64,000 nt of DNA from Escherichia coli. Lineage in GTDB: Bacteria; Pseudomonadota; Gammaproteobacteria; Enterobacterales; Enterobacteriaceae. Below, piece after piece: positions 57,745-58,593 of this stretch. The notes beneath the pieces are model-generated. The model did no database searches. It worked only from the letters and a program-made list of their open reading frames with translations, and was not told where the DNA came from. Positions within the stretch are counted from its first letter, which is position 1. Each line of letters starts with the position of its first letter. Location: NCBI RefSeq assembly GCF_003334255.1, contig NZ_QOWU01000007.1. The stretch is one strand, 5' to 3'. The position numbers and the translations under genes are program-made.

Positions 57745-58593
57745 GTGGCGCATCAGTTAAAACTTCTCAAAGATGATTTTTTTGCCAGCGACCAGCAGGC
57801 AGTCGCTGTGGCTGACCGTTATCCGCAAGATGTCTTTGCTGAACATACACATGATTTTTGTGAGCTGGTGATTGTCTGGCGCGGTAATGGCCTGCATGTA
57901 CTCAACGATCGCCCTTATCGCATTACCCGTGGCGATCTCTTTTACATTCATGCTGACGATAAACACTCCTACGCTTCCGTTAACGATCTGGTTTTGCAGA
58001 ATATTATTTATTGCCCGGAGCGTCTGAAGCTGAATCTTGACTGGCAGGGGGCGATTCCGGGATTTAACGCCAGCGCAGGGCAACCACACTGGCGCTTAGG
58101 TAGCATGGGGATGGCGCAGGCGCGGCAGGTTATCGGTCAGCTTGAGCATGAAAGTAGTCAGCATGTGCCGTTTGCTAACGAAATGGCTGAGTTGCTGTTC
58201 GGGCAGTTGGTGATGTTGCTGAATCGCCATCGTTACACCAGTGATTCGTTGCCGCCAACATCCAGCGAAACGTTGCTGGATAAGCTGATTACCCGGCTGG
58301 CGGCTAGCCTGAAAAGTCCCTTTGCGCTGGATAAATTTTGTGATGAGGCATAGTGCAGTGAGCGCGTTTTGCGTCAGCAATTTCGCCAGCAGACTGGAAT
58401 GACCATCAATCAATATCTGCGACAGGTCAGAGTGTGTCATGCGCAATATCTTCTCCAGCATAGCCGCCTGTTAATCAGTGATATTTCGACCGAATGTGGC
58501 TTTGAAGATAGTAACTATTTTTCGGTGGTGTTTACCCGGGAAACCGGGATGACGCCCAGCCAGTGGCGTCATCTCAATTCGCAGAAAGATTAA
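57745..58593 (+). pseudogene. rhaR: AraC-family activator RhaR interrupted by an in-frame TAG at 58351-58353
   Basis: GTG start ([11 protein letters not shown]...) gives 282 codons through the TAA at 58591-58593, but a TAG lies in frame (...[31 protein letters not shown]...). The downstream segment is the AraC HTH domain and aligns with the contiguous paralog RhaS in this window. Confidence 0.65.

Follow-up and report, generated by a model that had tools for sequence, protein, structure and literature searches.

A natural amber allele of the rhamnose regulator gene rhaR in an Escherichia coli relative of the Symbioflor 2 clone

In Escherichia coli, RhaR together with rhamnose and CRP activates the rhaSR operon, and RhaS then activates rhaBAD and rhaT (PMC9429829, PMC11983282, PMC5566544); the summaries of this cascade trace to Tobin & Schleif 1987, Egan & Schleif 1993 and Via et al. 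1996. One review (PMC5566544, citing Wickstrum et al.) states that RhaS itself also activates rhaSR, more weakly. The GLASS study, covering 60,472 E. coli genomes, counted rhaR and rhaS among the regulators in which recent deleterious polymorphisms are in excess, and the A243T substitution in rhaS of O157 / O157:H7 strains has been linked to inability to use rhamnose (PMC10401003).

The stretch of DNA analyzed here (64,000 nt; hereafter the window) contains a rhaR gene that shares its locus, its operon position and 281 of its 282 codons with that of E. coli K-12 (WP_001336056.1; N-terminal structures PDB 5u93 and 5u9e). In contrast to the K-12 gene, codon 203 is TAG instead of TCG; the protein ends within the first helix-turn-helix motif (HTH) and is predicted not to be a DNA-binding activator. 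This change, designated S203*, resembles the natural rhaR alleles Q215*, R226*, Q154*, E175* and S168* in being a single-step nonsense truncation of the same protein, but it affects another codon and is the allele carried by the window clone, found in no complete RefSeq genome. Like rhaS A243T, it is a natural lesion in a rhamnose regulator, the catabolic genes not being the target; A243T is, however, a missense change that has spread through a large lineage, whereas S203* is a nonsense change in rhaR of very low frequency. The classical regulatory Rha- mutants, obtained in laboratory K-12, reportedly defined rhaC, which was later split into rhaS and rhaR. As in those mutants, the upstream activator of the cascade is lost and the structural genes are intact; unlike them, S203* occurs naturally, in a background of commensal or probiotic type, and its phenotype is a prediction. 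The exact truncated product, and its kind (sporadic nonsense loss of a sugar regulator), are already in public data; no paper describing the rhaR S203* allele was found in the literature.

The rhaR locus and the position of the stop codon

The rhaR gene occupies positions 57745–58593 (+ strand; 849 nt, GTG start, 282 codons), which corresponds in coordinates and length to RefSeq rhaR of MG1655 and G1/2. The original prediction of an in-frame TAG at 58351–58353 was borne out both by reading of the codons (GAT GAG GCA TAG TGC AGT GAG, the stop being codon 203 of 282) and by translation of the frame, in which the N-terminal part ends with ...FCDEA and, past the stop, reading resumes to ...NSQKD*. 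Base-by-base comparison revealed TCG (Ser203) at this codon in both MG1655 and G1/2, and a single C>A transversion at position 58352 converts it into TAG. The possibility, raised with the prediction, that a reference rhaR might have the same TAG does not apply, since the MG1655 codon is a sense codon.

Position 58352 is the sole difference between the window and MG1655 in rhaS-rhaR, and one of only three within 55304–61401, the others being a 3-nt in-frame indel in rhaB and an SNP in rhaT (position 59407). Compared with G1/2, the region from 51954 to 64000 is identical save for 58352, while the whole 64 kb differs at nine positions, among which the rhaR nonsense change is the only disruptive one. 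Since the difference is deterministic and the codon is otherwise invariant, chance is not at issue. The entire 57745–58593 region is a disrupted gene with the features of a nonsense pseudogene: one substitution relative to intact orthologues and no further decay. We conclude that S203* is very probably a genuine, recent loss-of-function allele of rhaR, in which C>A at 58352 changed Ser203 (TCG) into an amber codon.

The part of the gene predicted to be still translated (57745–58350, 202 aa) was characterised through the Pfam AraC_binding match, PDB 5u93 and a deposited product. The predicted untranslated remnant (58354–58593), as judged from the ORF list, the translation and Pfam, encodes the rest of the first HTH (recognition helix) and the whole second HTH. 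The truncated protein has 202 aa when counted from the GTG codon and 232 aa from an upstream ATG at 57655, the start used in deposited annotations. In the ORF list, the locus is divided into an N-terminal ORF that ends at 58353 and a TTG-initiated ORF of 74 aa (58369–58593). The codons past the TAG are in the same frame and encode the AraC-type HTH region, in agreement with the original prediction. Its further claim, that the stop is a nonsense lesion and not a gene boundary, also held: the alignment of RhaS with RhaR spans the stop, which indicates one interrupted gene, not two genes.

Pfam analysis of the repaired RhaR sequence identified the domains AraC_binding (residues 22–152, E 5e-24), HTH_AraC (185–226 and 237–276) and HTH_18 (199–275). 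Residues 1–172 are 100% identical to the crystallised N-terminal domain (PDB 5u93), residues 180–280 (the DNA-binding domain) align with residues 15–115 of MarA, and the intact RhaS (278 aa) aligns with residues 11–275 of RhaR (35% identity, E 5e-55). Codon 203 lies at the junction of the two helices of the first HTH. The truncation had been placed after the cupin/dimerisation domain; this is correct insofar as the DNA-binding domain is functionally destroyed, but Pfam and PDB 5u93 locate the stop approximately 30 residues inside that domain. Of the DNA-binding domain, the truncated RhaR is predicted to retain the first helices and neither recognition helix, preceded by the rhamnose-binding/dimerisation domain and the linker.

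The locus has two features of an authentic rhaR. It is the second gene of the rhaSR operon, placed between rhaS and the convergent rhaT in the same order as in MG1655 and G1/2 (rhaBAD < > rhaS rhaR < rhaT), and it encodes an N-terminal AraC-type cupin ligand-binding/dimerisation domain. The two C-terminal HTH motifs are, however, not on the same polypeptide, as the TAG parts them from the N-terminal domain. Since it encodes no contiguous polypeptide with a sensor and a double HTH, this locus is a rhaR pseudogene and not a functional member.

The remaining components of the rhamnose locus are intact. The rhaS gene (56835–57671, + strand; WP_000217137.1) is identical to that of MG1655 and G1/2, and the divergent rhaBAD-rhaSR control region (56548–56834) has zero differences from either strain. 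The rhaT gene (58590–59624, - strand, 344 aa) converges on rhaR, with a 4-nt overlap, and is identical to rhaT of G1/2; the catabolic genes rhaB-rhaA-rhaD-rhaM (52594–56547, - strand) are likewise identical to their G1/2 counterparts, which are annotated as intact. Relative to MG1655, rhaB (- strand) has a 3-nt in-frame deletion at 56198 (488 aa vs 489 aa), common to G1/2. This deletion is a natural polymorphism that separates haplotypes bearing the rhaR amber codon.

Genetic background, frequency and haplotypes of S203*

The S203* allele of the window sits in a relative of the G1/2-G6/7-G8 clone, whose three strains form part of the probiotic Symbioflor 2 (PMC4358396). The yihF gene of the window (3669–5099, + strand; YdgA family, DUF945) contains an in-frame amber codon, codon 182, at 4212–4214 (...GDGSS*SNLDIEG). 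Of 5,426 complete genomes, only three (G1/2, G6/7 and G8) have this yihF amber, and in these RefSeq lists the gene as a pseudogene. Truncated YihF was found in 202 index blocks and truncated RhaR in 43, which is consistent with the rhaR lesion having arisen later, inside the Symbioflor 2 clone or close to it. A further difference from G1/2, which has the common yihX allele, was observed in codon 8 of yihX (position 35045; GGT>GTT, Gly8Val). The product is a HAD-type glucose-1-phosphatase, and the substitution, located in its N-terminal FDLGNV motif, is possibly a second deleterious change of this lineage.

The distribution of S203* was examined in complete genomes and in deposited proteins. 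With a 101-nt query, A at position 58352 was found in 0 of the 5,416 complete E. coli genomes matched, the best matches having one mismatch. A 35-nt query centred on this base, designed so that each 28-nt megablast seed must include the variant A, gave zero matches in complete genomes; the same centred-query method, applied as a positive control to the rare yihF amber, recovered it in 3 genomes. Exact-sequence look-up revealed that the 232-aa truncated RhaR has already been deposited (CUJ91930.1 and CAM2880396.1). It occurs on 26 contigs and in 43 index blocks. The 74-aa C-terminal ORF that goes with it has likewise been deposited, and the 202-aa (GTG start) and 260-aa products, looked up in the same exact manner, gave none on record. 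Seven public loci (L003–L009) were fetched, derived from one NCBI assembly (GCA_965136505.1), four ENA metagenome assemblies and two Logan runs. All seven carry A at the site, and in each of them the 74-aa ORF is annotated beside the truncated gene.

In an alignment of all loci, at least three local haplotypes were seen to bear the TAG, each nearest to a different intact one. The first comprises the window, L003, L005 and L008, and has G1/2 as its intact twin. The second (L006 and L007) has the +GTT rhaB allele and 58920G in common with the intact FDAARGOS_1249, and the TAG and one private SNP are the only differences between them. The third (L004) shares +GTT, 56397T and 57306T with the intact ETEC1716 and has further private differences. 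L009, a short metagenome scaffold, corresponds to the first haplotype with six private SNPs, which may be noise. Both L004 and L009 are metagenome scaffolds with 6–9 extra differences, and as such are weak evidence for separate origins. L004 contains six SNPs within 60 nt in the part matching window positions 54856–54914 (the rhaA/rhaB junction), a cluster suggestive of a small recombined segment or of chimeric assembly.

As a control, ten other single-step nonsense truncations of RhaR were looked up in public collections. Five of them were found: Q215* (52 contigs), R226* (30), Q154* (14), E175* (10) and S168* (9), compared with 26 contigs for S203*; the other five were absent from these collections. 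With control alleles at 9–52 contigs, S203* is not a hotspot outlier. This result is in line with the GLASS study, to whose excess of deleterious variants in rhaR and rhaS these other nonsense alleles belong (PMC10401003). A rival explanation is that S203* is specifically favoured, either as a mutational hotspot or by convergent selection, e.g. if the free N-terminal domain had its own function; the isolated RhaR N-terminal domain is not known to have one. The presence of the TAG on at least three haplotypes with different intact neighbours (G1/2, FDAARGOS_1249 and ETEC1716) is in line with such preference, as is the excess of recent deleterious variants in rhaR (PMC10401003). However, the control alleles reach contig counts comparable to, or above, that of S203*, and these counts include clonal copies, 18 of the 24 S203* contigs read being of the window haplotype. 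Moreover, two of the odd haplotypes come from metagenome assemblies, which can be chimeric or noisy, and short-tract recombination could also carry the allele between backgrounds; the multi-haplotype pattern fits recurrent mutation or such recombination alike. Specific favouring of S203* is thus improbable, and the allele belongs to the many that sporadically inactivate rhaR in E. coli.

The public loci also bear on whether the A at 58352 results from a sequencing or assembly error in a strain that truly has TCG. A lone single-base substitution, seen in no complete genome, is what such an error would look like, but the identical base recurs in seven independent loci, obtained from different samples and by different pipelines. 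Among them, L003, L005 and L008 match the window at 100% identity across 16.3, 9.7 and 8.9 kb, respectively, including the window-specific SNPs relative to G1/2 at 48416, 49161 and 51953. Since substitution errors at one site are not expected across Illumina isolate, metagenome and Logan assemblies, an artefact is very unlikely.

Readthrough, suppression and split products

Another explanation is that the amber codon is read through, owing to a suppressor tRNA encoded elsewhere in the genome or to high natural readthrough, and that full-length RhaR is still made. The second in-frame amber codon of the window, that of yihF at 4212–4214, agrees with this, and a serine-inserting supD tRNA would give exactly the wild-type RhaR. 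The yihF amber is, however, annotated as a pseudogene in G1/2, and two ambers of two nonsense lesions are unremarkable, given that TAG is the outcome of roughly half of the single-step paths to a nonsense codon in rhaR. The base following the rhaR TAG is T, and UAG-U is an efficient terminator.

No tRNA genes were found within the 64-kb window. Full tRNA genes with amber-suppressor anticodons were queried against complete genomes; the queries were validated by the wild-type tRNA genes, which matched at exactly one mismatch. Natural suppressors proved very rare outside laboratory strains: among 5,426 complete genomes, a supF-type allele was present in none and supD in one (DSM 498), and both were absent from G1/2-type genomes. 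The supE query gave 155 records, and the 60 of these 155 that were listed are apparently K-12-type laboratory strains or their derivatives. In RefSeq, the annotated feature is 'none' for the supE allele of K-12 laboratory strains and the supD allele of DSM 498, whereas the wild-type genes bear tRNA-Ser or tRNA-Tyr annotations; screens that rely on annotation would consequently miss such suppressor genes.

In view of these results, the production of full-length RhaR by readthrough is highly improbable. The specific proposal of a natural amber suppressor tRNA in this clone, with yihF codon 182 and rhaR codon 203 both partly read through, is extremely doubtful; if it were true, yihF and rhaR would be conditionally expressed and not dead. 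Programmed recoding of the selenocysteine type, recognizable by a conserved in-frame stop and a recoding signal, does not describe this site, as the orthologues have a sense codon at rhaR codon position 203. To our knowledge, E. coli has no UAG recoding system. The window does contain an in-frame TGA (44707–44705) in fdoG (- strand, approximately 42242–45292), with open stretches of 203 and 820 codons on either side; in this gene, for the formate dehydrogenase-O alpha subunit, the TGA is the expected, conserved selenocysteine codon, in contrast to the rhaR amber.

A functional split gene, in which the N-terminal sensor and the 74-aa C-terminal ORF would be made separately and act together, can be practically dismissed: gene callers do annotate that ORF from the TTG at 58369, 15 nt past the stop, but it has only a weak GAG upstream of the TTG and contains one complete HTH only, and the arrangement is one base from an intact gene and occurs in no complete genome, thus giving no sign of being maintained. 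A split protein was also rejected as implausible in its own right, the 74-aa ORF beginning within the recognition helix of the first HTH.

Predicted consequence for rhamnose regulation

With S203* taken as a loss-of-function allele, translation would end after Ala202. The resulting product would keep the rhamnose-binding/dimerisation domain, but with both DNA-recognition helices and the C-terminal surface gone it should not bind the rhaSR promoter, and the rhamnose-dependent, CRP-assisted activation of rhaSR by RhaR would be lost. RhaS would then stay near its basal level, or be raised only via its weaker self-activation; without amplification of RhaS, induction of rhaBAD and rhaT would be strongly reduced or delayed, making both catabolism and transport weak or slow to respond. 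A polar effect is not expected, since rhaR is the last gene of its operon.

The original prediction of a rhamnose-negative phenotype is a sensible one, reasonably drawn from the order RhaR > rhaSR > RhaS > rhaBAD/rhaT. A strictly negative phenotype is not assured, since RhaS can partly activate rhaSR, and leaky or delayed use of rhamnose is as likely as a clean negative. Loss of RhaR function is accordingly the firmer statement, and loss of rhamnose utilisation the less firm one. A literature search for the growth phenotype of an E. coli rhaR knockout returned only papers on fungal RhaR or on modelling, and a review examined on Symbioflor makes no mention of rhamnose.

S203* is an ordinary allele, whose value is mainly one of bookkeeping and which opens no new mechanism. 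Its presence on at least three local haplotypes offers a modest case in which recurrent mutation can be weighed against recombination. From this allele, the rhamnose reaction would be expected to be weak, delayed or negative despite intact catabolic genes, which is of relevance to biochemical typing, to metabolic models and to rhamnose-inducible promoters driven by the chromosomal rhaSR in such a background. It also provides a further example of the documented sporadic loss of sugar regulators in E. coli.
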